This document shows, piece by piece, positions 2,783 to 15,750 of a DNA stretch of 64,000 bases (position 1 is its first letter; every line of letters begins with the position of its first letter). The notes under the pieces are model-generated. The model made no database searches, was not told the DNA's origin, and worked only from the letters and a program-made list of their open reading frames with translations. A program made the position numbers and the translations under genes. Source of the DNA: Minisyncoccia bacterium (GTDB taxonomy: Bacteria > Patescibacteriota > Minisyncoccia > Phycocordibacterales > Zambryskibacteraceae); assembly GCA_041742965.1 (NCBI GenBank), contig JBGTNQ010000003.1:12483-76482 (forward strand). The letters run 5' to 3'.

Positions 2783-3334
2783 ATGAAATTCTTTTTTACA
2801 AAAACAAAAAATAAAATCAGTTCTTCTCGAGGATTCACCCTTTTGGAGGTTCTTATTGCTATAACTATTTTTATCTTTGCTCTTGTGGCTACCATGACCG
2901 CCGCTAGGAGTGGTCTGGCAAGTGCATACGAGTCTAGAGATCAGGTCATTGCTTTTTATCTGGCCCAAGAAGCAGTGGAGTTTATAAGAAATAAGAGAGA
3001 TACAAACAGTATTTTGAATACAGTTACTCCAACCAACTGGCTTAGTGGCGTCTCTAATCTTTCTAGTGATCCATGTTACCCCGGTAAAGTGTGTCTCATT
3101 GATGTTGTGGCGAACCAGATTACTGCCTGCGCCTCGCCAACCACCTGTCCAAACCTAAGACAAGATGTAAATACAAAAATGTACGGCTACGATTCTTCTT
3201 GGTCTTTAAATCAGTTTAAGAGAGAGGTTAGGGTGCAAAATATTAATGCTGACGAGGTGTCTATGACCGTTCTTATTACTTGGCCAAAGGGAAGTTTTGA
3301 AGTCAAAGAGATAATTTTAAATTGGCAAACTTAA
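2783..3334 (+). CDS. Pilin-like (pseudopilin) protein
   Basis: An internal ATG at 2783 gives MKFFFTKTKNKISSSRGFTLLEVLIAITIFIF; the longer ORF start at 2624 overlaps the preceding gene and is unlikely. Confidence 0.65.
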   Translation: MKFFFTKTKNKISSSRGFTLLEVLIAITIFIFALVATMTAARSGLASAYESRDQVIAFYLAQEAVEFIRNKRDTNSILNTVTPTNWLSGVSNLSSDPCYPGKVCLIDVVANQITACASPTTCPNLRQDVNTKMYGYDSSWSLNQFKREVRVQNINADEVSMTVLITWPKGSFEVKEIILNWQT

Positions 3335-3840
3335 TGAAAAACAAAAGATTTAAAATTAAAGACAGTTCACGGGGTATTGCTTTATACATTGCTATTACTA
3401 TCACTGGAGCATTGGTCTTGGTAAGTTTTGCCGTTGTAAATTTAGCCATTAGACAGATAAACATATCCTCAGCGGGGAGAGACTCACAGACCGCTTTTTA
3501 TGCGGCTGATAGCGGTGCTGAATGCGCCCTATTTTGGGATGTGAAGAACCCTTCAGGGCAGACAGCTTTTTCAACCACTACACCACAGACAACACTTTCT
3601 TGTAATGCTGACGCATCAAATCCCCTAAATGCCACTATTTCTATAAACAGAACATCTAATGGACCATATGCTACTTCAACTTTTAATATCACCTTTCTTC
3701 CCAGAACTTATTGCGCCACGGTAACTGTTGCAAAGAACTACTCTAGTGGTGTTCGGACAACCATAGAATCAAAGGGGTATAATACCTGTGCGTCAGGCGC
3801 CCTAAGGCGCGTAGAGAGGGCCATAAGAGTAGATTACTAA
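3334..3840 (+). CDS. PilX-like minor pilin
   Basis: MKNKRFKIKDSSRGIALYIAITITGALVLV resembles the PilX-type N-terminus; the start sits in a TAATG overlap with the upstream gene. Confidence 0.5.
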   Translation: MKNKRFKIKDSSRGIALYIAITITGALVLVSFAVVNLAIRQINISSAGRDSQTAFYAADSGAECALFWDVKNPSGQTAFSTTTPQTTLSCNADASNPLNATISINRTSNGPYATSTFNITFLPRTYCATVTVAKNYSSGVRTTIESKGYNTCASGALRRVERAIRVDY

Positions 3841-8371: not shown

Positions 8372-8640
8372 GTTGCCGTACGCACCTGATCATTACAAAA
8401 GTAGAGTATGGTCAATATAGCGGGTTGGAGGAGTAGTACCTCGCAAGGGGACAAAGACTCATAACCTGCACAGGTTAAGTTAATTAAGTGTATATTTAGA
8501 CATAGCGGGTTGCCGTACGTACCTGATCATTACAAAAGTAGAGTATGGTCAATATAGCGGGTTGGAGGAGTAGTACCTCGACAGGCTCATAACCTGTAGG
8601 CATCAGTGCAATTCTGATACCCGCAACAAGTATGAAAATA
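8372..8640. repeat. Tandem direct repeat (2 x ~135 bp) in the tRNA-Met leader region
   Basis: The unit gcgggttgccgtacgNacctgatcattacaaaagtagagtatggtcaatatagcgggttggaggagtagtacctcg...ctcataacctg occurs twice in tandem and is followed by a perfect 16-bp hairpin (8630-8672). Confidence 0.6.
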
Positions 8641-8697
8641 ATCCTGCCTTTGCAGGATTATTTTCATAAGGTATATTTGATGGGTTCGGTATTTCTT

Positions 8698-8770
8698 GAC
8701 GGGGTAGCTCAGTTGGTAGAGCACAGGACTCATAAGCCTGGGGTCGTGGGTTCAATCCCCACCTCCGTCA
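8698..8770 (+). tRNA. tRNA-Met/Ile2 (anticodon CAU)
   Basis: Cloverleaf: acceptor GACGGGG/CUCCGUC, D-arm GCUC-AGUUGGUA-GAGC, anticodon loop CUCAUAA, T-arm GUGGG-UUCAAUC-CCCAC. G1-C72 is paired, so this is not an initiator. Confidence 0.8.
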
Positions 8771-8866
8771 CCGGCAATAAATCTGCATCTATGCGGGTTG
8801 ATATAAGTAATTTGCATGGGTGTTTTATTGCCTCTAGGTGTTGAATCTGTTAGTTTATATCGTATT

Positions 8867-8941
8867 GCGGGCGTAGCTCAATTTGGTTAGAGCACTCCCC
8901 TGTCACGGGAGAGGTTGCCGGTTCAAGTCCGGTCGCCCGCG
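8867..8941 (+). tRNA. tRNA-Asp (anticodon GUC)
   Basis: Acceptor GCGGGCG/CGCCCGC, anticodon loop CUGUCAC, T-arm GCCGG-UUCAAGU-CCGGU. Confidence 0.9.
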
Positions 8942-9135
8942 CATAAAACAAACTGTCCCGGACGCGAAAGCGTTCGGGCAGTATTGTTTTACAGTGACGC
9001 CGGACTTGAAAGACGGAGGCCGCGAAGCCGTCCTGAGCTTTGCGAAGGGCGTGGCCGAGTCCGGGCAGGAGCCACTTATGACCCCGCTATGGCGGGGGAA
9101 TTAGTGAGCTGACGCCAAGTCCGGTCGCCCGCGCA
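8942..9135 (+). other. ~190-nt GC-rich structured element abutting the tRNA-Asp 3' end, ending in a 19-bp duplicate of that 3' end
   Basis: GNRA-capped hairpins (e.g. CCCGGACGC-GAAA-GCGUUCGGG and CCCCGC-UAUG-GCGGGG). The direct repeat aagtccggtcgcccgcgca occurs at 8925-8943 and 9117-9135. A near-identical copy lies at 10939-11129. Confidence 0.6.
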
Positions 9136-9214
9136 TCGAGAAAAACAGGGCTAAAAACATAGCTCTGTTTTTTATACTGACGGGATTTTGGAACCGGTGA
9201 TATACTTTTGGTGT

Positions 9215-9889
9215 ATGGAAATAAAACAATATGACTGTTTTGAAGGCGAGAGCGTAGATTTAACACAGGCAGAAGCTGTATTAAGGGAAAAACCTGATGT
9301 TATTATTCTCGAAGCACCTGCAGATAGTGAAAAGGACCCTTCTACAATCTTTAATAACTATGAAGTATATGAAAAACCAATTGAGATGGTCCTTGAATAT
9401 CAGAAGAATTTAAGAGAATCCTCAAGTAAATTTAAATGGGTTGAGTCAGATATATTCCTGTATGAAAACATTGTTAAGTTATGGAAGGAAGGGCATAACG
9501 TAGACATTTATAGAGTCGATGCGCCTGCAGAATTGTTGAAATTATCAACGGACTCCACCTGGCCGGGTTATAGAATGACTGAACCTCTTAGGAAGGGGGT
9601 GGAGTTTAAGTGGTGGGTTTACGTCTATATAAGGGAAACAATAATGACTAAAAATATCAGATTTATTTTAGAAGTTCCTCGCTATTCAGATAGAAAGATA
9701 TTGATTTTTTTGCAAAAATTTCACTGGGACAATGTTAGGTTTAGATTAGAAAATAACGAGGATGACATATTTAGCTATTATTTCTCAGATTTCAAGGATG
9801 TCAATAAAATTAATATAAACGATAAGGTGCAGGAATTAGAAAACGACATTCTCTACAAATATTGGAATAAGGTGAAAGGTCTAAGTTAA
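9215..9889 (+). CDS. Hypothetical protein (cassette 1), paralog of 49070..49738
   Basis: Approximately 45% identity over the full length to the ORF at 49070..49738 (KPDVIILEAP/KPDIIFFEAP, KLWKEGHNVDIY/TLWKNGHDIKLY, FLQKFHWDNVRF/FLQKFHWHNVKF). The start is placed at the ATG aligned with the paralog and with the conserved spacer promoter. Confidence 0.6.
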   Translation: MEIKQYDCFEGESVDLTQAEAVLREKPDVIILEAPADSEKDPSTIFNNYEVYEKPIEMVLEYQKNLRESSSKFKWVESDIFLYENIVKLWKEGHNVDIYRVDAPAELLKLSTDSTWPGYRMTEPLRKGVEFKWWVYVYIRETIMTKNIRFILEVPRYSDRKILIFLQKFHWDNVRFRLENNEDDIFSYYFSDFKDVNKININDKVQELENDILYKYWNKVKGLS

Positions 9890-10032
9890 TTTTAAGTTCT
9901 GGTAACTTTTATTGACATGTATAAAAAATGTAGTCTGAAGTTGTATTGCATTGGTAAAAACAGAGCTAAAAATATAGCCCCGTTTTTCATACTGTAGTGA
10001 TTTTTTGGTTCTAACGGGGTATACTTTTTTGT

Positions 10033-10482
10033 ATGACCATCCCCACTCACATTCTTCTCGGTGCCATTATTGGGAAAGTTACAGGGAATTATGCACTGGC
10101 AATTGGAGCGTCTGTTATTCCCGACATTGACCACTTTGGCTCATATATAAAAAGTGGGGTTATAAAAAAGCCGAAAGTTTTTTGGGACACAATCACTAGT
10201 GCAGACGACCCTCACGGAGACCAGAGAGGTATACTGCACAATTTATTTTTCTTTCTAATTATTTCTGCTCTGTTTTATATTTTTTTACCCAAAATCGCTC
10301 TTGTCTTGGTTTTGGGATGGTTTGGGCACATTATTTTAGATGCCCTAGATAAGTCAGATTACTGGCCGTTCTACCCTAACAAAAGTGTCAACATACGAGG
10401 GCTCATCAAATATGCTTCTGCTCAAGAGCTCATGTTCTTTCTGGCTCTATTAATTATATTTATAACCCTGTTCTTCTTATAG
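10033..10482 (+). CDS. Membrane protein, YdjM/DUF457-like putative metal-dependent hydrolase (cassette 2)
   Basis: TM helices with conserved His/Asp residues (PTHILLGAII...PDIDHFGSY...GHIILD). Confidence 0.45.
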   Translation: MTIPTHILLGAIIGKVTGNYALAIGASVIPDIDHFGSYIKSGVIKKPKVFWDTITSADDPHGDQRGILHNLFFFLIISALFYIFLPKIALVLVLGWFGHIILDALDKSDYWPFYPNKSVNIRGLIKYASAQELMFFLALLIIFITLFFL

Positions 10483-10515
10483 GAGGCATTTTAGAACCAG
10501 TGGTATACTTTTAAA

Positions 10516-10908
10516 ATGGACTCTACCAATGAATTTTCTTTTATATTAAAACCCTCAGAGCATGGGGTTGGAGTTTTTGCCACGCAGGATATTAAACAAG
10601 GAACACACCTGAGATTATTTGGGGATAATGAAGTGGTTAATTTGAAAGCATTAGAAAGAGAGAAAGAATCTGTTCCCGAGTTTTATCAAGAACATTGTTT
10701 AAATAGGGGAGACAAACTTATTTGTCCTCAAGATTTTGGACACATGCACATTGGTTGGTATTTAAATCACTCTAATAATTACAACGCTATTCCTGATGAA
10801 GTATATGAATGGTATGCATCAAGAGATATAAAATCTGGAGAGGAGATTCTTGTTGACTACAATACACTTGATGAACCAGACGAGTCTAAAGCTGATTACT
10901 ACAAATAA
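10516..10908 (+). CDS. SET-domain protein (putative protein-lysine methyltransferase) (cassette 3)
   Basis: GVGVFATQDIKQGTHL, NHSNNYN (NHSxxPN-like) and GEEILVDY motifs. Confidence 0.7.
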   Translation: MDSTNEFSFILKPSEHGVGVFATQDIKQGTHLRLFGDNEVVNLKALEREKESVPEFYQEHCLNRGDKLICPQDFGHMHIGWYLNHSNNYNAIPDEVYEWYASRDIKSGEEILVDYNTLDEPDESKADYYK

Positions 10909-10938
10909 TAGTTCTAACCTCCTCCACCAAGTTGCGCA

Positions 10939-11129
10939 TAAAACAAACTGTCCCGGACGCGAAAGCGTTCGGGCAGTATTGTTTTACAGTGACGCCGGAC
11001 TTGAAAGACGGAGGCCGCGAAGCCGTCCTGAGCTTTGCGAAGGGCGAGGCCGAGTCCGGGCAGGAGCCACTTATGACCCCGCTATGGCGGGGGAATTAGT
11101 GAGCTGACGCCAAGTCCGGTCGCCCGCGC
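10939..11129 (+). other. Second copy of the ~190-nt structured element, internal to the cassette array
   Basis: One mismatch relative to 8944-9135. It is preceded by the degenerate tRNA-Asp 3'-end-like motif CCACCAAGTTGCGCA and ends in GCCAAGTCCGGTCGCCCGCGC. Confidence 0.6.
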
Positions 11130-11200
11130 TGATGAGATTTTCACCATTAAATCCTTTAACCATAAGGATTTTTTGGTTCTAACCTGGTATTATTTTAGGT

Positions 11201-11728
11201 ATGAAATATATGAAGTTTATTAGAATTTTTCTCCTAGTTTTAATTGTTATTGGATTGGGACTGATTGCTACTCAAAAAATGTGGGTACCGAAGCTTGTAA
11301 CTCAAATATTGAACCGAGGGGACATGGTAGTTAACAAAGAGATTATTCCAGATGAGGCATCAGCCTTCGGAGATATATCTGGAGATAATAAGATTGTTGT
11401 TTCTGGAGTGTATAGTTACAATCAATTTATTGGCACTCTTCCATCACTAGATTTTTACGTTGATGAAGTCACCGCACATTTGATACCCCGAGGATTTGAT
11501 GATGATCGAATTCCGTGGTTTGGGATTTTAAATCAGGAGAAGGCTATGGCCTTATTGGGGATTAGTTCTAAAGAATTAGGAGGGAATATCTGTGAGATTA
11601 AAGGGAATGCAGAAATAGAGATATCAAAATACTTAATCTATCGAGGGGAGTCCGAGGGAAAAGATGGAGCGACTCTAACAAAATTGTTGAAGGTTAGCCC
11701 TCCCACCTATATCAATTGTACAAATTAG
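11201..11728 (+). CDS. Hypothetical membrane-anchored/secreted protein (cassette 4)
   Basis: N-terminal TM/signal MKYMKFIRIFLLVLIVIGLGLIA; no recognisable domain. Confidence 0.5.
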   Translation: MKYMKFIRIFLLVLIVIGLGLIATQKMWVPKLVTQILNRGDMVVNKEIIPDEASAFGDISGDNKIVVSGVYSYNQFIGTLPSLDFYVDEVTAHLIPRGFDDDRIPWFGILNQEKAMALLGISSKELGGNICEIKGNAEIEISKYLIYRGESEGKDGATLTKLLKVSPPTYINCTN

Positions 11729-11836
11729 GTTGGTTCTAACATCCTCCACCAAGTTGCGCATCGAGAAAAATAGAGCTAATAATATGGCTCTATTTTTTAT
11801 ACTGATGGGATTTCAGAACCGTGATAATATTTTGGT

Positions 11837-12733
11837 GTGATAAATCTAATTGGATTACAGAAAAATGTATCTCTAGCACCCCATACCACTTATAAAATTG
11901 GCGGAGTCGCAGATTATTTTATTGTCGCTAAATCAAAAGAAGACCTCATTAATGCAGTTTTGATAGCAAAGAAAAATGAGATTCCTTATTTTATTCTAGG
12001 GTCTGGAGCAAATATTCTTGTTGGTGATAAAGGATTCAGGGGTCTGGTTATAAAAAATGAATCAAAAAAAATCACTTTCGATAAAACATTTGTAACAGTA
12101 GATAGCGGGGTTATTTTATTAGATTTGATTAAAGAAACCTTGGTGCACAGCCTGTCTGGTTTAGAACATTTTGCTGGGATTCCTAGTACTATAGGAGGTG
12201 CTTTGTGGCAAAATCTTCACTTCCTTTCTCCAGATAGGCAAACAACATTATTTATTGAATCAGTTATTGATTCAGCTGAGATAATGGATGAAGATGGTGA
12301 CTTAAAGAAAGTGGATAAAAGCTTCTTTAATTTTAGTTATGACTACAGTATTTTGCACGACAGAAAATTATTGGTGACTGAAGCAACTTTTTCTCTTGAG
12401 CCAAAAGATAAAAATTTGATAAAGAATCAAATAGAAGAGAATTTAAGGTGGAGAAATAAAAAACAGCCGCAGCTAGATGAGTTCCCCTCCTGTGGTTCTG
12501 TATTTAAAAAGATAGATGGAGTCGGGGCAGGGAGGCTCATTGATGAAGTTGGACTAAAGGGACATCAAATTGGAGGAGCGCAAATATCAAACAAACATGC
12601 GAATTACATAGTGAATTTAGGAAACGCAAGCGCCCAAGACGTGTTAGATATCATAACTCTAGTTCAGAATAAGGTAAGGTCAGAATTAGGACATGCCCTA
12701 GAGACTGAAATAAGTTTTATTGGAGAATTTTAA
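11837..12733 (+). CDS. murB: UDP-N-acetylenolpyruvoylglucosamine reductase (cassette 5)
   Basis: FAD-binding N-terminus (APHTTYKIGGVADYF...ILGSGANIL) and a MurB C-terminal domain; GTG start. Confidence 0.85.
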   Translation: MINLIGLQKNVSLAPHTTYKIGGVADYFIVAKSKEDLINAVLIAKKNEIPYFILGSGANILVGDKGFRGLVIKNESKKITFDKTFVTVDSGVILLDLIKETLVHSLSGLEHFAGIPSTIGGALWQNLHFLSPDRQTTLFIESVIDSAEIMDEDGDLKKVDKSFFNFSYDYSILHDRKLLVTEATFSLEPKDKNLIKNQIEENLRWRNKKQPQLDEFPSCGSVFKKIDGVGAGRLIDEVGLKGHQIGGAQISNKHANYIVNLGNASAQDVLDIITLVQNKVRSELGHALETEISFIGEF

Positions 12734-12845
12734 TTGTATAGCAGTTCTAACTTCCTCCACTAAGTTGCGCATAGAAAAAAGTAGGGCTAATAATATGGCT
12801 CTATTTTTTATACTGATGGGATTTTAGAACTGATATACTTTTATT

Positions 12846-13571
12846 ATGAAAATCATATCTTTGAATACATGGGGAGGACGTATTCATGAACCACTCTTAA
12901 ATTTTTTCGAGAAGCACAAAGACGCTGATATTTTTTGTCTACAAGAGATTTACCACGAAGCTAGAGGAAAGGAGAATGATGACGAGTATCAAAATGACGC
13001 CCACAATCTTTTTATAGATATTCGAAACATATTAAATAATCATAAAGGATATTTTAGACCTGCGGTCGGTGATTACTACGGTTTAGCGATATTTGTTAAA
13101 AATGACATACACGTAGAGCAAGAAGGCGACATATCTATATACTCTGTCGAAGAATATAAAGGTGGTGGTAATCACTCAAGAAATCTCCAATACATTAAAC
13201 TTATAGACAAGGAGAGTAAACTCCTGGTAGCCAACGTGCATGGGATTTGGAATGGTAAAGGGAAAACAGATACCCCAGAGAGGCTAGAGCAATCTAAAAG
13301 GATAAAGGAGTTTCTTAATGAAATGAACAGCAAAACAGTATTGTGTGGAGATTTCAATCTTTTACCAGATACTAAAAGTGTGAAAATTTTAGAGGAGGAT
13401 ATGGAAAATTTGGTTAAAGAATATGGAGTAAGTACCACCAGGAGTAGTTATTACACTAAACCAGAGAAATTTGCCGATTATATTTTTGTTACATCAGGTA
13501 TTAAGGTCAAGGATTTTAAGGTCTTACAAGATGAGGTGTCTGACCACCTACCTTTGTTAGTCGAGTTCTAA
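12846..13571 (+). CDS. Endonuclease/exonuclease/phosphatase (EEP) family protein (cassette 6)
   Basis: ISLNTWGG...FCLQEI...NVHG...SDHLPLLVEF, the hallmark motifs of the EEP fold. Confidence 0.7.
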   Translation: MKIISLNTWGGRIHEPLLNFFEKHKDADIFCLQEIYHEARGKENDDEYQNDAHNLFIDIRNILNNHKGYFRPAVGDYYGLAIFVKNDIHVEQEGDISIYSVEEYKGGGNHSRNLQYIKLIDKESKLLVANVHGIWNGKGKTDTPERLEQSKRIKEFLNEMNSKTVLCGDFNLLPDTKSVKILEEDMENLVKEYGVSTTRSSYYTKPEKFADYIFVTSGIKVKDFKVLQDEVSDHLPLLVEF

Positions 13572-13737
13572 CGCCATGCATTCGCTTTGCTCAGCACCTT
13601 CGGTCCACTAGGTTGCGCAACAAACAAAAACATTAGATCTTGTGTCTAGTGTTTTTGTTTTGCAAAAAGCTTTGAAATTCTATAATATTTAAGCCGTTCT
13701 TTTGAATTGTGCGCCAGTGTATATGTTTTGTTAGTTT

Positions 13738-14000
13738 GCCAATGTAGCTCAGTTGGTAGAGCACCCCCATGGTGGATCGTAAGATTCTGCCCAGCCAAAA
13801 GGTAACTTTTGGATGAATCCCGAATAACGGTTAAAGTCCTACAAAGGGATAAGACCGTGGCCCTGAAATATCTGAAGGGCCCGAACGACTGACAAGGGTT
13901 CGCCCAAGGCGAAAAGATACAGTCTAGTCCTCTCATATAAATAAAAGAGAGGTGTAAACGAAGGGGGAGGTCATCGGTTCGATCCCGATCATTGGCTCCA
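13738..14000 (+). tRNA. tRNA-Thr (anticodon GGU) interrupted by a ~187-nt group-I-like intron between positions 36 and 37; CCA encoded
   Basis: Exon 1 (13738-13773) is GCCAAUG-UA-GCUC-AGUUGGUA-GAGC-A-CCCCC-AUGGU. Exon 2 (13961-14000) is AA-GGGGG-AGGUC-AUCGG-UUCGAUC-CCGAU-CAUUGGC-U-CCA. The intron spans 13774-13960, with a U at the exon-1 end, a terminal G and an AAGAUACAGUCUAGUCC P7/P9.0-like stretch. Confidence 0.7.
13774..13960 (+). ncRNA. Putative group I intron in the tRNA-Thr anticodon loop
   Basis: Insertion 3' of anticodon nucleotide 36, the position used by the tRNA-Ile and tRNA-Arg introns of proteobacteria. The exon ends in U and the intron ends in G. An HNH endonuclease gene lies immediately downstream. 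Confidence 0.55.
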
Positions 14001-14077
14001 AAACTAGACCTTTTAGTTATCAACTGTTGACCACTTTTTAATTTGAGTGTGGTCTTTGGCCGAGCTATGATTAATAA

Positions 14078-14530
14078 ATGGCTAACCCAAAAAAACCGCG
14101 CCCCAAGTGTCCGACATGTGGCAAAGAGCCTGCTCGGTCATTCTACAAATATTGTAGTAATAGATGTCAGCAGGAATATCAGCGTGCGCGTTATCTTAGG
14201 GAATGGAAGGCCGGGAAAAGAAGTGGCCTGCAAACTATAGGAATTGTCACGGTGACAATAAAACGTTACCTTAGAGAAAAATTCGGGGATAAATGTTGTA
14301 TTTGTGGTTGGTCGAAAGTTAACCCAAAAACCGGGAAGGTCCCATTGGTCGCTGACCACATTGATGGGAATTGGCGCAATAATGCAGAAGAAAACCTTCG
14401 TTTGATATGTCCAAATTGCGATGCATTATTGCCAACGTTTTCCGCGCTAAATAAAGGTAATGGCAGGGAAAATAGGGCGCCAAGAAAAAGAACTCAAGAA
14501 GCGACGGAGTTTTTAAAAAAGCCAAAGTAG
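14078..14530 (+). CDS. HNH homing-endonuclease-like protein
   Basis: CPTCG...CSNRC zinc ribbon followed by CCICGWS...VPLVADHIDGNWRNNAEENLRLICPNCD, an HNH motif with a flanking CxxC pair. Confidence 0.8.
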   Translation: MANPKKPRPKCPTCGKEPARSFYKYCSNRCQQEYQRARYLREWKAGKRSGLQTIGIVTVTIKRYLREKFGDKCCICGWSKVNPKTGKVPLVADHIDGNWRNNAEENLRLICPNCDALLPTFSALNKGNGRENRAPRKRTQEATEFLKKPK

Positions 14531-14591
14531 TTCAGTGGTAGAACACTGCTTTCGTAAAGCAGGAACGCGAGTCCGATTCTCGCCTTTGGCT
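14521..14591 (+). tRNA. tRNA-Thr (anticodon CGU)
   Basis: Acceptor GCCAAAG/CUUUGGC, D-arm GUUC-AGUGGUA-GAAC, anticodon loop UUCGUAA. Its 5' end overlaps the last three codons of the HNH ORF. Confidence 0.85.
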
Positions 14592-14874
14592 CTAGTTTTG
14601 TTTGTTTTAATGATAAAAATCTGTATTCTGTAGGAACGGGGGAGCAAGCCTTCTCCGTCAGAGAATTGGCCCGACTCAATCGGCAATAAGCACAGAGGGC
14701 TCTGTTCGTGGTCCATATTGAACGGTGGTCTGTGCACTGCTCGGCGGGATTAGACACCTCGCTAAAATCAATTGGATTGGCAGTACGTCCGCAAGGTCGA
14801 AACTGTCTCAAGACACGGACAGGGGGCGCCGATACACCACTCGGCGTCCCTTTTCATTTGCTATAATCACACTT

Positions 14875-15750
14875 GTGACCAAAGAAGAGATACAAAAAAA
14901 GATTGAGGAACTTGAAGCGACTATGAGCTCGCCAGATTTTTGGTCTGACAAAGACAAGGCCCAGAGAACTATAAAAGAAATTCAAGATCTAAAAGACGAC
15001 CTACTGGGTGTGGGAAAATATGACAAGGAAGACGCCATCATGACGATATTTTCTGGTGCAGGAGGAGATGATGCAGAAGATTTCTCTTCCATACTTCTAG
15101 ATATGTATTTGAAATATATTCAGAGTAAGGGGTGGAAGACAGCCCTTATACACGAAAACAAAAATGACCACGGCGGTTTTCGCAATGTAACTATAGAAAT
15201 TTCTGGCAAAAATGTTTATGGAACATTGAAAAATGAATCCGGAGTGCACCGGCTCGTGCGCGTTTCACCATTTAATGCAAAGCAGTTGAGACATACTTCT
15301 TTTTCAATGGTTGAGGTGATACCAAGATTTGAAAAAACAGGAGAACTAGAAATTCCAGAGTCTGATATCCGTGTGGAACTTTCGAAGTCAGGTGGCCCAG
15401 GTGGACAAAATGTAAACAAGCGAGAGACAGCGGTGAGGGTCATACATATACCGACGAACCTTTCTGTCCATGTGACGAGCGAGCGGTCGCAGGGTCAGAA
15501 CAAAGAAAAGGCCATCGCCATTCTTCACGGCAAACTTTATAAACATCTTGAGGAAGAGAGAATCGCAAAAGAAAAGGGTATGTATATTTCCAAAAGTACT
15601 CAAATAGAATGGGGTAATCAAATACGGTCCTATGTCTTTCATCCATACAAAATGGTCAAAGACCATAGAACTAATGTAGAAACTTCAGATGTTGAATCCG
15701 TTCTTGAAGGGGAGATAGATGAGTTTATAGAAGCGGAGAAAGAGCTGTAG
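14875..15750 (+). CDS. prfB: Peptide chain release factor 2 (no programmed frameshift apparent)
   Basis: SPF tripeptide (VRVSPFNAKQ), GGQ motif (SGGPGGQNVNK) and an RF2-like N-domain. The start is set at a GTG 8 nt after a TATAAT box; the upstream in-frame extension is GC-rich and Arg-rich and unlike RF2. Confidence 0.75.
   Translation: MTKEEIQKKIEELEATMSSPDFWSDKDKAQRTIKEIQDLKDDLLGVGKYDKEDAIMTIFSGAGGDDAEDFSSILLDMYLKYIQSKGWKTALIHENKNDHGGFRNVTIEISGKNVYGTLKNESGVHRLVRVSPFNAKQLRHTSFSMVEVIPRFEKTGELEIPESDIRVELSKSGGPGGQNVNKRETAVRVIHIPTNLSVHVTSERSQGQNKEKAIAILHGKLYKHLEEERIAKEKGMYISKSTQIEWGNQIRSYVFHPYKMVKDHRTNVETSDVESVLEGEIDEFIEAEKEL

Follow-up and report, generated by a model that had tools for sequence, protein, structure and literature searches.

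The Tandem tRNA-Thr Locus

This study concerns a small gene for a free-standing HNH endonuclease located between two tRNA-Thr genes of a Minisyncoccia bacterium (assembly GCA_041742965.1). The DNA analyzed, referred to here as the window, is a stretch of 64,000 nucleotides (nt) of contig JBGTNQ010000003.1 (positions 12,483 to 76,482), and all features of the locus are on its forward strand. The HNH gene (14078..14530) begins with ATG and was identified from an open reading frame (ORF) listing; it encodes 150 amino acids (aa) that include CCICGWS...HIDGNWRNNAEENLRLICPNCD. Upstream is a tRNA-Thr(GGU) gene that spans 13738-14000 when ARAGORN is run with introns allowed. Its 5' exon (13738..13773, tRNA nt 1-36, with the anticodon GGU at its end) and its 3' exon (13961..14000, with an encoded CCA) are separated by a 187-nt group I intron (13774..13960), which is inserted between tRNA nt 36 and 37 and was delimited by ARAGORN -i together with 28 homologous inserts. 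Downstream is tRNA-Thr(CGU) at 14521..14592, found by ARAGORN and by the Rfam tRNA model (14521-14591, 67.4 bits). The HNH ORF is thus intergenic, between two tRNA genes, and the intron at 13774-13960 has no ORF of its own.

The HNH ORF runs into the downstream tRNA gene. The two overlap by 10 nt (14521-14530), so that nt 1-10 of tRNA-Thr(CGU) serve also as the final three codons and the TAG stop of the ORF, and the stop codon itself is the conserved U8-A9-G10 of that tRNA. On the other side, 77 nt separate the CCA end of tRNA-Thr(GGU) at 14000 from the HNH start codon, which begins at the 78th base. An earlier note, made from the sequence alone, had reported both this overlap and a start 78 nt after the intron-containing tRNA, and the ORF listing, ARAGORN and Rfam agree with it. 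Its description of the HNH gene as wedged between two tRNA-Thr genes is literally correct for the window, but in relatives the constant partner is tRNA-Thr(CGU) and not the intron-containing tRNA. The latter was not detected in the window by ARAGORN with default settings or by Rfam, and was found only with introns allowed; in many other loci ARAGORN labeled intron-containing tRNA-Thr(GGU) genes wrongly as Arg or His.

The HNH Protein

Nucleases of the HNH, or His-Me finger, type are marked by a beta-beta-alpha-metal fold with catalytic His and Asn residues and a metal ligand, often with CxxC...CxxC zinc ligands around it. The HNH protein has an N-terminal CxxC...CxxxC zinc ribbon followed by a beta-beta-alpha-metal HNH domain with a CCCC zinc site. 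In an alignment of 79 homologues two Cys4 sites (C11/C14/C26/C30 and C73/C76/C111/C114) were invariant, as were D93-H94, which contains the catalytic His, N102, N106 and D115, and all of these residues were present in each of 80 genomic copies. An AlphaFold model (predicted local distance difference test score 84) has strands at residues 91-94 and 107-110 and then a helix at 112-117.

Database matches were in keeping with this architecture. PHROG HNH families matched the protein over almost its full length (E 1.6e-18 to 5e-14), and some family members are listed with PF13392. Pfam gave a treble-clef zinc-ribbon match at the N-terminus and 21.5 bits for HNH_3, below the cut-off of 24.8. Foldseek against the PDB returned weak generic matches (E >= 0.026), including Cas9 HNH, ScoMcrA, Cap5, PacI and T4 endonuclease VII, and all nucleases among the matches were HNH enzymes; a sequence search of the PDB returned nothing relevant and no solved relative. 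Two other names attached to some homologues were rejected. The JGI name YacG/DUF329 gyrase inhibitor corresponds to an NF002362 match of 24.9 bits against a cut-off of 79 that covers residues 3-32 only, the NCBIfam matches to YacG, IscB and ZorE are all far under their cut-offs, and the likeness behind the YacG and IscB labels is confined to the zinc ribbon or the HNH core.

The ORF was intact in 79 of the 80 genomic copies. The sole copy with an in-frame stop (codon 66, ...KKYL*KKFG...), in locus L064 at 3001-3459, is possibly a pseudogene or a sequencing error.

A Family at a Fixed Chromosomal Site

Approximately 1958 clusters at 90% identity matched the HNH protein, and the best 120 were all ~150 aa in length and 66-81% identical to it. 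Clustering of the library at 50% identity left the Paceibacteria family as a single representative (231 bits), and all other members of a wider superfamily of ~3500 clusters scored <=155 bits. Scanning one genome per GTDB species, we found the gene in at least 212 species, all of them metagenome-assembled genomes of the Patescibacteria/Paceibacteria type. No description of this Patescibacteria family was found in the literature searched. The locus statistics given below are from 80 HNH-anchored loci retained from these carriers, each from a different GTDB species.

The position of the gene was fixed. In 78 of the 80 loci the HNH gene was followed by tRNA-Thr(CGU) on the same strand, the gap ranging from -44 to +58 nt, and the 10-nt overlap of the window was found exactly in 27 loci; because of this recurrence, the arrangement is not due to chance. 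Of the two exceptions one was cut by a contig end and the other had a reversed order. Further downstream, prfB (RF2), ftsE and ftsX followed in 66 of the 80 loci. The upstream neighbor was variable: intronless tRNA-Thr(GGU) in 24 loci, tRNA-Thr(GGU) with an intron of 176-230 nt in 27, and tRNA-Gly(CCC) or another neighbor in the rest. In L063 (2557-3450) the order was intron-containing tRNA-Thr(GGU), tRNA-Thr(CGU) and then HNH, with prfB-ftsE upstream on the opposite strand, and the TTATCAAC/inverted-repeat leader usually found ahead of the gene was missing.

Our first reading, based on synteny in 78 of 80 loci and identities of 62-81%, was of a conserved housekeeping gene inherited vertically in the candidate phyla radiation (CPR). 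This was rejected after tests of nearest relatives, of correlation with flanking genes and of synonymous sites.

Patchy Occurrence and an Empty Site

The HNH gene was absent from all 80 metagenome loci that we anchored on RF2 and picked blind to HNH; some of these loci were Paceibacteria-like and shared the tRNA-Thr/prfB/ftsE/ftsX synteny. For the closest relatives, 12 RF2 homologues 81-95% identical to that of the window were traced to their contigs, again blind to HNH. Only one of these, L255 (RF2 86% identical), carried the gene, and its HNH protein was 96% identical (aa) to that of the window. The nearest relative, L252 (RF2 95%), had neither intron nor HNH gene, and its tRNA-Thr(GGU) and tRNA-Thr(CGU) were separated by 11 nt. 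The same empty site, with tRNA-Thr spacers of 10-16 nt, was recognized in L257, L260, L262 and L263. The gene is therefore present or absent at one conserved locus with a recognizable empty site, as is expected of a free-standing homing gene. The tRNA-Thr genes of L252 were quite different in sequence from those of the window, and tRNA-Thr(CGU) of L255 was identical to that of the window at 72 of 72 positions. Across loci, tRNA-Thr(CGU) identity correlated with neither HNH nor RF2.

Divergence of the HNH Gene and Its Flanks

Comparison of pairwise identities among the HNH-anchored loci revealed that divergence of the HNH protein is independent of that of its neighbors. Its rho values against RF2, FtsE and FtsX were 0.09, 0.01 and -0.01, and those of RF2 against FtsE and FtsX were 0.70 and 0.79. 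Discordance was found in both directions, with HNH 91% identical (aa) and RF2 68% in the pair L042/L056, and the reverse, HNH 65% and RF2 88%, in L025/L048. At the DNA level, L042 and L056 share a 501-nt island of 90% identity between flanks of 67%. Third-codon-position identity in this pair was 0.83 for HNH versus 0.39 and 0.41 for RF2 and FtsE, and the corresponding values were 0.89 versus 0.63 and 0.61 in L036/L072, 0.71 versus 0.41 and 0.34 in L042/L068, and 0.67 versus 0.39 and 0.37 in L050/L069. Over several pairs, HNH third positions were 0.64-0.89 identical and the flanks were saturated or clearly lower (0.34-0.63). Since selection at the protein level cannot hold synonymous sites alike, these HNH copies are younger than the genomes that surround them.

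The window and L255 were compared segment by segment. They have in common a block, at 13738..14599 on the forward strand of the window, that consists of tRNA-Thr(GGU) with its intron, the HNH gene and tRNA-Thr(CGU), and is 91.7% identical (nt) over 866 nt. Within it, the tRNA-Thr(GGU) exons are 100% (5') and 97.5% (3') identical, the intron 97.8%, the HNH gene 88.7% (third positions 0.71) and tRNA-Thr(CGU) 100%. The block ends sharply at the outer boundaries of the tRNA genes, and the 60 nt beyond either end are unrelated (23% and 40% identical). Farther out, prfB is 80% identical (third positions 0.56), ftsE 75% and ftsX 66%. The HNH gene has thus diverged independently of its flanks, and adjacent markers have been converted along with it, both as expected of horizontal spread.

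These results also bear on the possibility that the HNH gene is a vertical, lineage-specific gene without mobility, and that the discordance is a product of noise in a short protein together with artefacts of assembly and binning. It is the case that the spread of HNH identities around 65% (standard deviation 0.037-0.044) is about that of binomial sampling of 150 sites, and that chimeras in metagenome assemblies could form at tRNA genes. However, third positions of 0.83-0.89 for HNH against 0.39-0.63 for the flanks were found on single contigs from independent studies, a 96% identical HNH protein occurs in L255 (RF2 85-86% identical) while genomes with RF2 up to 95% identical are without the gene, and five close relatives have a precise empty site of 10-16 nt. 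We consider this explanation strongly disfavored and very improbable.

tRNA Scars and Co-Transfer

Remnants of older tRNA genes were found alongside the HNH gene. The flanks of L038, a carrier, and L087, a non-carrier, are 78% identical, and the carrier has a different tRNA-Thr(CGU). After it come 23 nt left over from the 3' end of a tRNA of the L087 type, and after these the common downstream sequence. Such 3' remnants of a host-type tRNA after an intact tRNA were also observed in L019, L042 and L068. The tRNA-Thr(CGU) of L068 is of the window's type (94% identical), though its RF2 is only 46-50% identical to those of the hosts with that type. On the upstream side, 5' halves of tRNA genes were found ~65 nt ahead of the HNH ATG in several loci, and the only D-arm fragments outside annotated tRNAs, four in 434 kb, were all 63-85 nt upstream of an HNH start codon. 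The remnants, together with tRNAs of foreign type, indicate that a tRNA-Thr(CGU), and in some cases the pair of tRNA-Thr genes, frequently arrives with the cassette, which lands in or beside the resident one.

Fragments of tRNA were also seen in loci with no HNH gene. In L082 (3185-3203, 3322-3340) and L083 (1161-1181), the final 19-21 nt of the tRNA-Thr genes are repeated in direct orientation 120-260 nt farther downstream. These copies resemble att-like or repair scars and suggest that the tRNA-Thr locus is a recurrent site of breakage or integration even without HNH. In L098 (2461-2560) and L112 (~3410-3500), a tRNA 5' fragment followed by the common motif GGCGGATAAACTCCA lies upstream of tRNA-Thr(CGU).

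The Group I Intron and Its Relation to the HNH Gene

Homologous inserts were found at the same site of tRNA-Thr(GGU), between nt 36 and 37, in 28 sequences; all lack an ORF and all end in G. The exon GGU pairs with GCC to form P1, and the U.G pair of this helix, at the 5' splice site, was found in each of the 28. Helices P2-P9 and the P3 pseudoknot are present, with covariation in P2, P4-P6, P8 and P9, an invariant P7, and a compensatory C-G to U-A change in the P3 pseudoknot of three of the 28 sequences. In total, 24 pairs have compensatory changes in this alignment. Over nine helices, 96.1% of the cells were paired, versus 78.1% in shuffles (0 of 500 as high) and 31-48% when the helices were slid. 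The Rfam model Intron_gpI (RF00028) scored 15.2 bits (E = 0.12) in a search of 281 nt, against a gathering score of 50, and had no match in searches of 2.5 kb or the whole window. Judged by its conserved structure, the insert of 187 nt in the window is a true group I intron without an ORF, and its splicing is predicted.

The possibility of group I introns in CPR tRNAs has been mentioned (PMC8172020). Known bacterial tRNA introns of this group, those of cyanobacterial tRNA-Leu(UAA), tRNA-fMet and Azoarcus tRNA-Ile (PMC3984707), are likewise small and ORF-less and lie in the anticodon loop, and they have in common with the inserts described here (176-230 nt) the P1 U.G pair, P3-P9 and the terminal G. 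Those of the present study differ in their host, tRNA-Thr(GGU), in their site at nt 36/37 and in being too divergent for the Rfam Intron_gpI model. We also observed tRNA-Met(CAU)-like genes in L087 (266-568, reverse strand) and L026 (5592-5923, forward strand) with inserts of 231-260 nt in the anticodon loop, both sharing the 5' sequence AGCGGG...GGGAGGCTCAT; tRNA-Thr(GGU) is therefore not the sole intron-bearing tRNA in these bacteria.

The earlier note had suggested, as one of two options, collaborative homing with the neighboring intron. In this model the HNH enzyme would cut intronless tRNA-Thr(GGU) at or near the insertion site, the ORF-less intron would protect its carrier, and the two would be mobilized together. 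Several observations are as this model has it. The intron is genuine, has no endonuclease of its own and lies in the upstream tRNA gene, whose end is 77 nt from the HNH gene. It is polymorphic among close relatives, the nearest of which (L252) is without both intron and HNH. It is contained in the block common to the window and L255, where the two have been inherited together, and it is more frequent beside the HNH gene (28 of 52 HNH-positive versus 3 of 13 HNH-negative loci; Fisher p = 0.064), a weak positive association. There are also precedents of trans-homing, in the F-CphI endonuclease of cyanophage S-PM2 with a psbA intron and in T4 mobE with the I-TevIII intron (PMC6083498, PMC2790892), where, as here, a free-standing endonuclease gene is beside a gene split by a group I intron whose ORF is lacking or defunct.

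However, the model requires that no intronless target be found beside the endonuclease, and such targets were common. Intronless tRNA-Thr(GGU) was directly upstream of the HNH gene in 24 of the 52 HNH-positive loci, and the 17-nt anticodon stem-loops of these 24 alleles are identical to those of spliced intron-containing exons (e.g., ACTCCATGGTAAGGAGT, CATCCATGGTAAGGATG). Because their stem-loops are unchanged, the HNH gene evidently tolerates an intronless insertion site. Several other HNH-positive loci have tRNA-Gly(CCC) upstream, the intron occurs without HNH in L088, L258 and L262, intron identity tracks that of RF2 (rho 0.41) more than that of HNH (rho 0.16), and the L042/L056 transfer tract does not contain any tRNA-Thr(GGU). 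Unlike in the two phage systems, endonuclease and intron here occur independently, and intronless, unchanged alleles coexist with the endonuclease. We therefore regard classical collaborative homing as unlikely; hitch-hiking of the intron by co-conversion with HNH is possible, judging from the tracts compared.

Phage Relatives and Known Systems

The relatives of the HNH gene in GenBank phages are free-standing HNH genes with 36-48% identity, and in 6 of the 10 examined the gene adjoins tRNA-Thr. In Enterococcus phage iF6 the HNH gene is 12 nt ahead of tRNA-Thr(UGU), and in Synechococcus phage DSL-LC03 it overlaps tRNA-Thr(UGU) by 9 nt. The tRNA gene comes first in E. coli phage WPEC5 (tRNA-Thr(UGU), 64 nt before HNH), Streptomyces phage Jada (tRNA-Thr(GGU), 30 nt before gp14), Raoultella phage Ro1 (tRNA-Thr(UGU), 0 nt before Ro1_00166) and Microbacterium phage Wolfstar (tRNA-Thr(CGU), 0 nt before gp25). 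Of 80 IMG/VR contigs with HNH relatives (37-56% identity), 60 have the gene within 150 nt of a tRNA. The adjoining tRNA is tRNA-Thr in 26 of the 80, although Thr accounts for only 65 of the 672 tRNAs on these contigs, and the association is thus preferential. The three closest viral relatives (L171-L173) have the exact 10-nt overlap with tRNA-Thr(UGU). These uncharacterized phage genes are similar to that of the window in being near full-length homologues (37-56% identity) with zinc ribbon and HNH domain, 0-64 nt from tRNA-Thr. They differ in being in phage genomes, on either side of the tRNA and beside varying isoacceptors (UGU, CGU and GGU), and the Paceibacteria family forms a separate tight cluster from them. 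In four other viral contigs, L166 (1075-1635), L175, L176 and L204, the HNH ORF enters tRNAs other than Thr, overlapping Gly by 15 nt and Arg or Lys by exactly 10 nt. HNH genes in tRNA clusters therefore appear in general to end at U8-A9-G10 of the tRNA.

Similar arrangements are known in phages T4 and T5. T4 SegB, the analogue that has been studied best, is a free-standing GIY-YIG homing endonuclease encoded in the T4 tRNA cluster; its gene is missing from the homologous region of relatives, and the enzyme recognizes tRNA gene sequence (PMC2330249). As in the window, the segB gene lies between tRNA genes, is patchy, is inherited with its flanking tRNAs and abuts the downstream tRNA, and in the segB transcript maturation of that tRNA cuts between the last codon and the stop, which was proposed to limit expression (PMC2330249). 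SegB differs in being GIY-YIG and not HNH, in belonging to a phage and not a bacterial chromosome, and in spreading during co-infection. It also recognizes a general T-psi-C motif of many tRNAs, whereas the Paceibacteria HNH family is tied to tRNA-Thr; cleavage has been demonstrated for SegB and is predicted for the HNH protein. The heg genes of T5 (cited in PMC2330249) are HNH genes among tRNA genes, and the ORFs of hegC, hegD and T5.069 extend 14-24 nt into the tRNA gene that follows. The tRNAs next to them are Gln, Ser and Asn, they are phage and not chromosomal genes, and of hegA only the ~40-aa HNH core can be aligned with the HNH protein (52% identity, E 4e-10), with differences in architecture and length.

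Promoter and Cassette Leader

Two promoter-like sequences were identified at the locus by consensus scans. The first, TTTGCA-16-TATAAT at 13659..13686 (10 of 12 matches), is upstream of tRNA-Thr(GGU) and possibly marks the start of a tRNA-HNH-tRNA transcript. The second, TTGAGT-17-TATGAT at 14043..14071, ends 6 nt before the HNH ATG, and the pattern TTGAC-N17-TATAAT-N6-7-ATG recurs upstream of the HNH gene across loci. This suggests a dedicated HNH promoter and an mRNA that would be leaderless or nearly so, with a transcription start placed by the pattern. The left end of the cassette (14017..14054) consists of the TTATCAAC motif at 14017-14024 and an inverted repeat, GACCAC at 14029-14034 and GTGGTC at 14049-14054. 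Motif and repeat are kept in most of 78 upstream regions; across loci the repeat has the form GACCA-N14-TGGTC and straddles the -35 box, its 3' arm following the box. The core pairs of the repeat are conserved, with weak covariation by manual pair counting, and RNAalifold predicted no structure in the conserved HNH upstream region.

Neighboring Regions of the Window

In relatives, the genes for tRNA-Met, tRNA-Met, tRNA-Asp, tRNA-Thr(GGU) and tRNA-Thr(CGU) are contiguous (L257 2697-3309, compared with 8556-13738 of the window). In the window, tRNA-Asp and tRNA-Thr(GGU) are ~4.8 kb apart, and among the ORFs between them (9188-13571) are a murB-like gene (11837-12733) and one of the Exo_endo_phos type (12846-13571). 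A GC-rich intergenic sequence within this stretch, 10934-11129, is 91% identical to L263 1280-1467, where it directly follows tRNA-Asp; no Rfam family matched it at E <= 1, and it is a candidate for a conserved non-coding RNA.

The spacer between tRNA-Thr(CGU) and the start of prfB (14593-14877) has a GC fraction of 0.49 versus 0.41 and is homologous to 825-1109 of the HNH-less L252. Differences between the two sequences look compensatory, and Rfam gives no match. A terminal hairpin at 14824-14854 (terminator-like, 14821-14852) is 100% identical in L253, though prfB there is only 76% identical. The spacer could represent a leader of prfB or else a small RNA. We rejected it as a part of the cassette, as it is absent from L255 and the 80 HNH-anchored loci and kept in L252.

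A Probable Homing Cassette in Paceibacteria

Taken together, these data make it probable that the HNH gene is a homing cassette with a free-standing endonuclease. Its target would be the tandem tRNA-Thr locus of Paceibacteria (Parcubacteria, CPR), and it would spread horizontally, converting tRNA genes along with itself. A homing-type gene had also been the proposal of the earlier note, and the free-standing ORF, its patchiness at a conserved site, a divergence discordant with that of the flanks and the old tRNA fragments alongside it all speak for that assignment. The note's suggestion of an enzyme aimed at tRNA-Thr genes has indirect support in the invariant neighbor, tRNA-Thr(CGU), and in the phage and viral relatives that adjoin tRNA-Thr. 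As contrary evidence it had named homologues that are ubiquitous and never intron-associated, and an absence of intron polymorphism among relatives; homologues proved to be widespread but not ubiquitous, and the intron is polymorphic.

From the comparisons above we infer nuclease activity, a target site, a repair pathway, a transcription start and an effect of tRNA processing, which would fit together as follows. The HNH gene would be transcribed from its own promoter directly upstream of the ATG, and the protein would cut HNH-less genomes in the tRNA-Thr pair or close to it. The junction of the two tRNA-Thr genes would be the most parsimonious target, as the 0.5-kb insertion splits this junction and would so protect the carrier. 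The break would be repaired from an HNH-carrying copy, with the conserved tRNA sequences as homology, and the recipient would thereby gain the HNH gene, often one or both of the donor tRNA-Thr genes, and any intron that these contain. As the end of the ORF lies in the downstream tRNA, 5' maturation of that tRNA would remove the HNH stop codon and so limit expression, as proposed for T4 segB.

A more specific version of this scheme, which we put forward tentatively and think rather doubtful, is that the element replaces tRNA-Thr genes. The endonuclease would break the resident tRNA-Thr genes and bring its own functional, cleavage-tolerant copy or copies, spreading between divergent CPR bacteria by DNA uptake as part of a tRNA-Thr-specific HNH clade shared with phages. 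The intron would then have been enriched either by riding in the conversion tract or by shielding tRNA-Thr(GGU) from the enzyme.

Several points weigh against a homing cassette. No degenerate HNH remnants were found in more than 20 empty or long spacers (tblastn, 81 family members, E <= 1), and no nucleotide of tRNA-Thr(CGU) separates HNH-positive from HNH-negative loci. Among the matches listed, no relative on a viral contig exceeds 56% identity. Conservation is unusually high for a selfish element, with a plateau of pairwise identity at ~65% and never <53%, and only one possible pseudogene was seen in 80 copies; with the lack of remnants, this would also fit a gene kept for the benefit of the host. 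The 80 loci were picked by similarity to the query, which narrows the range of identities and biases the sample to intact copies. The RF2-anchored metagenome loci are an arbitrary sample, the first 600 pattern matches. Finally, assembly chimeras at conserved tRNA sequences are possible for single contigs, though they would not account for a pattern that recurs in studies independent of each other.

As the protein is strongly conserved and no decaying copies were found, there is room for a role that may benefit the host. In that case HNH would be a domesticated nuclease under purifying selection, passively exchanged through recombination in the flanking tRNA arms, and its own activity would not drive its spread; possible roles are the exclusion of foreign DNA with tRNA-Thr genes or maintenance of the tRNA operon. 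The retention of all catalytic residues, the 79 intact copies of 80, the conserved dedicated promoter and inverted repeat, and the fixed locus between conserved tRNAs are all consistent with such a role. On the other hand, the gene is missing in 11 of the 12 nearest relatives and in every metagenome locus anchored on RF2, and is therefore rare and dispensable; the genes related to it are free-standing HNH genes of the kind typical of phage tRNA clusters, and insertion scars that split older tRNA genes suggest break-induced events. On balance, host benefit seems an unlikely explanation, and spread by homing remains the reading that we prefer.

Work on free-standing homing endonucleases has, to our knowledge, dealt almost exclusively with phages. 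The principle is established there, and neither a widespread chromosomal occurrence in CPR bacteria nor the tRNA-Thr bias of the wider clade was found in the literature searched. The HNH element described here seems to move between chromosomes in many species of uncultured Paceibacteria, at the same tRNA-Thr locus in each. There is a practical consequence for annotation, as default tRNA and Rfam scans miss the overlap of ORF and tRNA and the intron-split tRNA-Thr(GGU), and genomes may thus appear to be without tRNA-Thr(GGU). If our interpretation is correct, the phage and CPR enzymes would form a clade of small (~150 aa) HNH proteins with probable tRNA-Thr specificity, which are candidates for new site-specific nucleases. 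The cassette would also be direct evidence, at the level of genomes, that CPR lineages which are quite divergent often exchange DNA and repair it by homology, a process in which tRNA genes would act both as targets and as portable homology arms.

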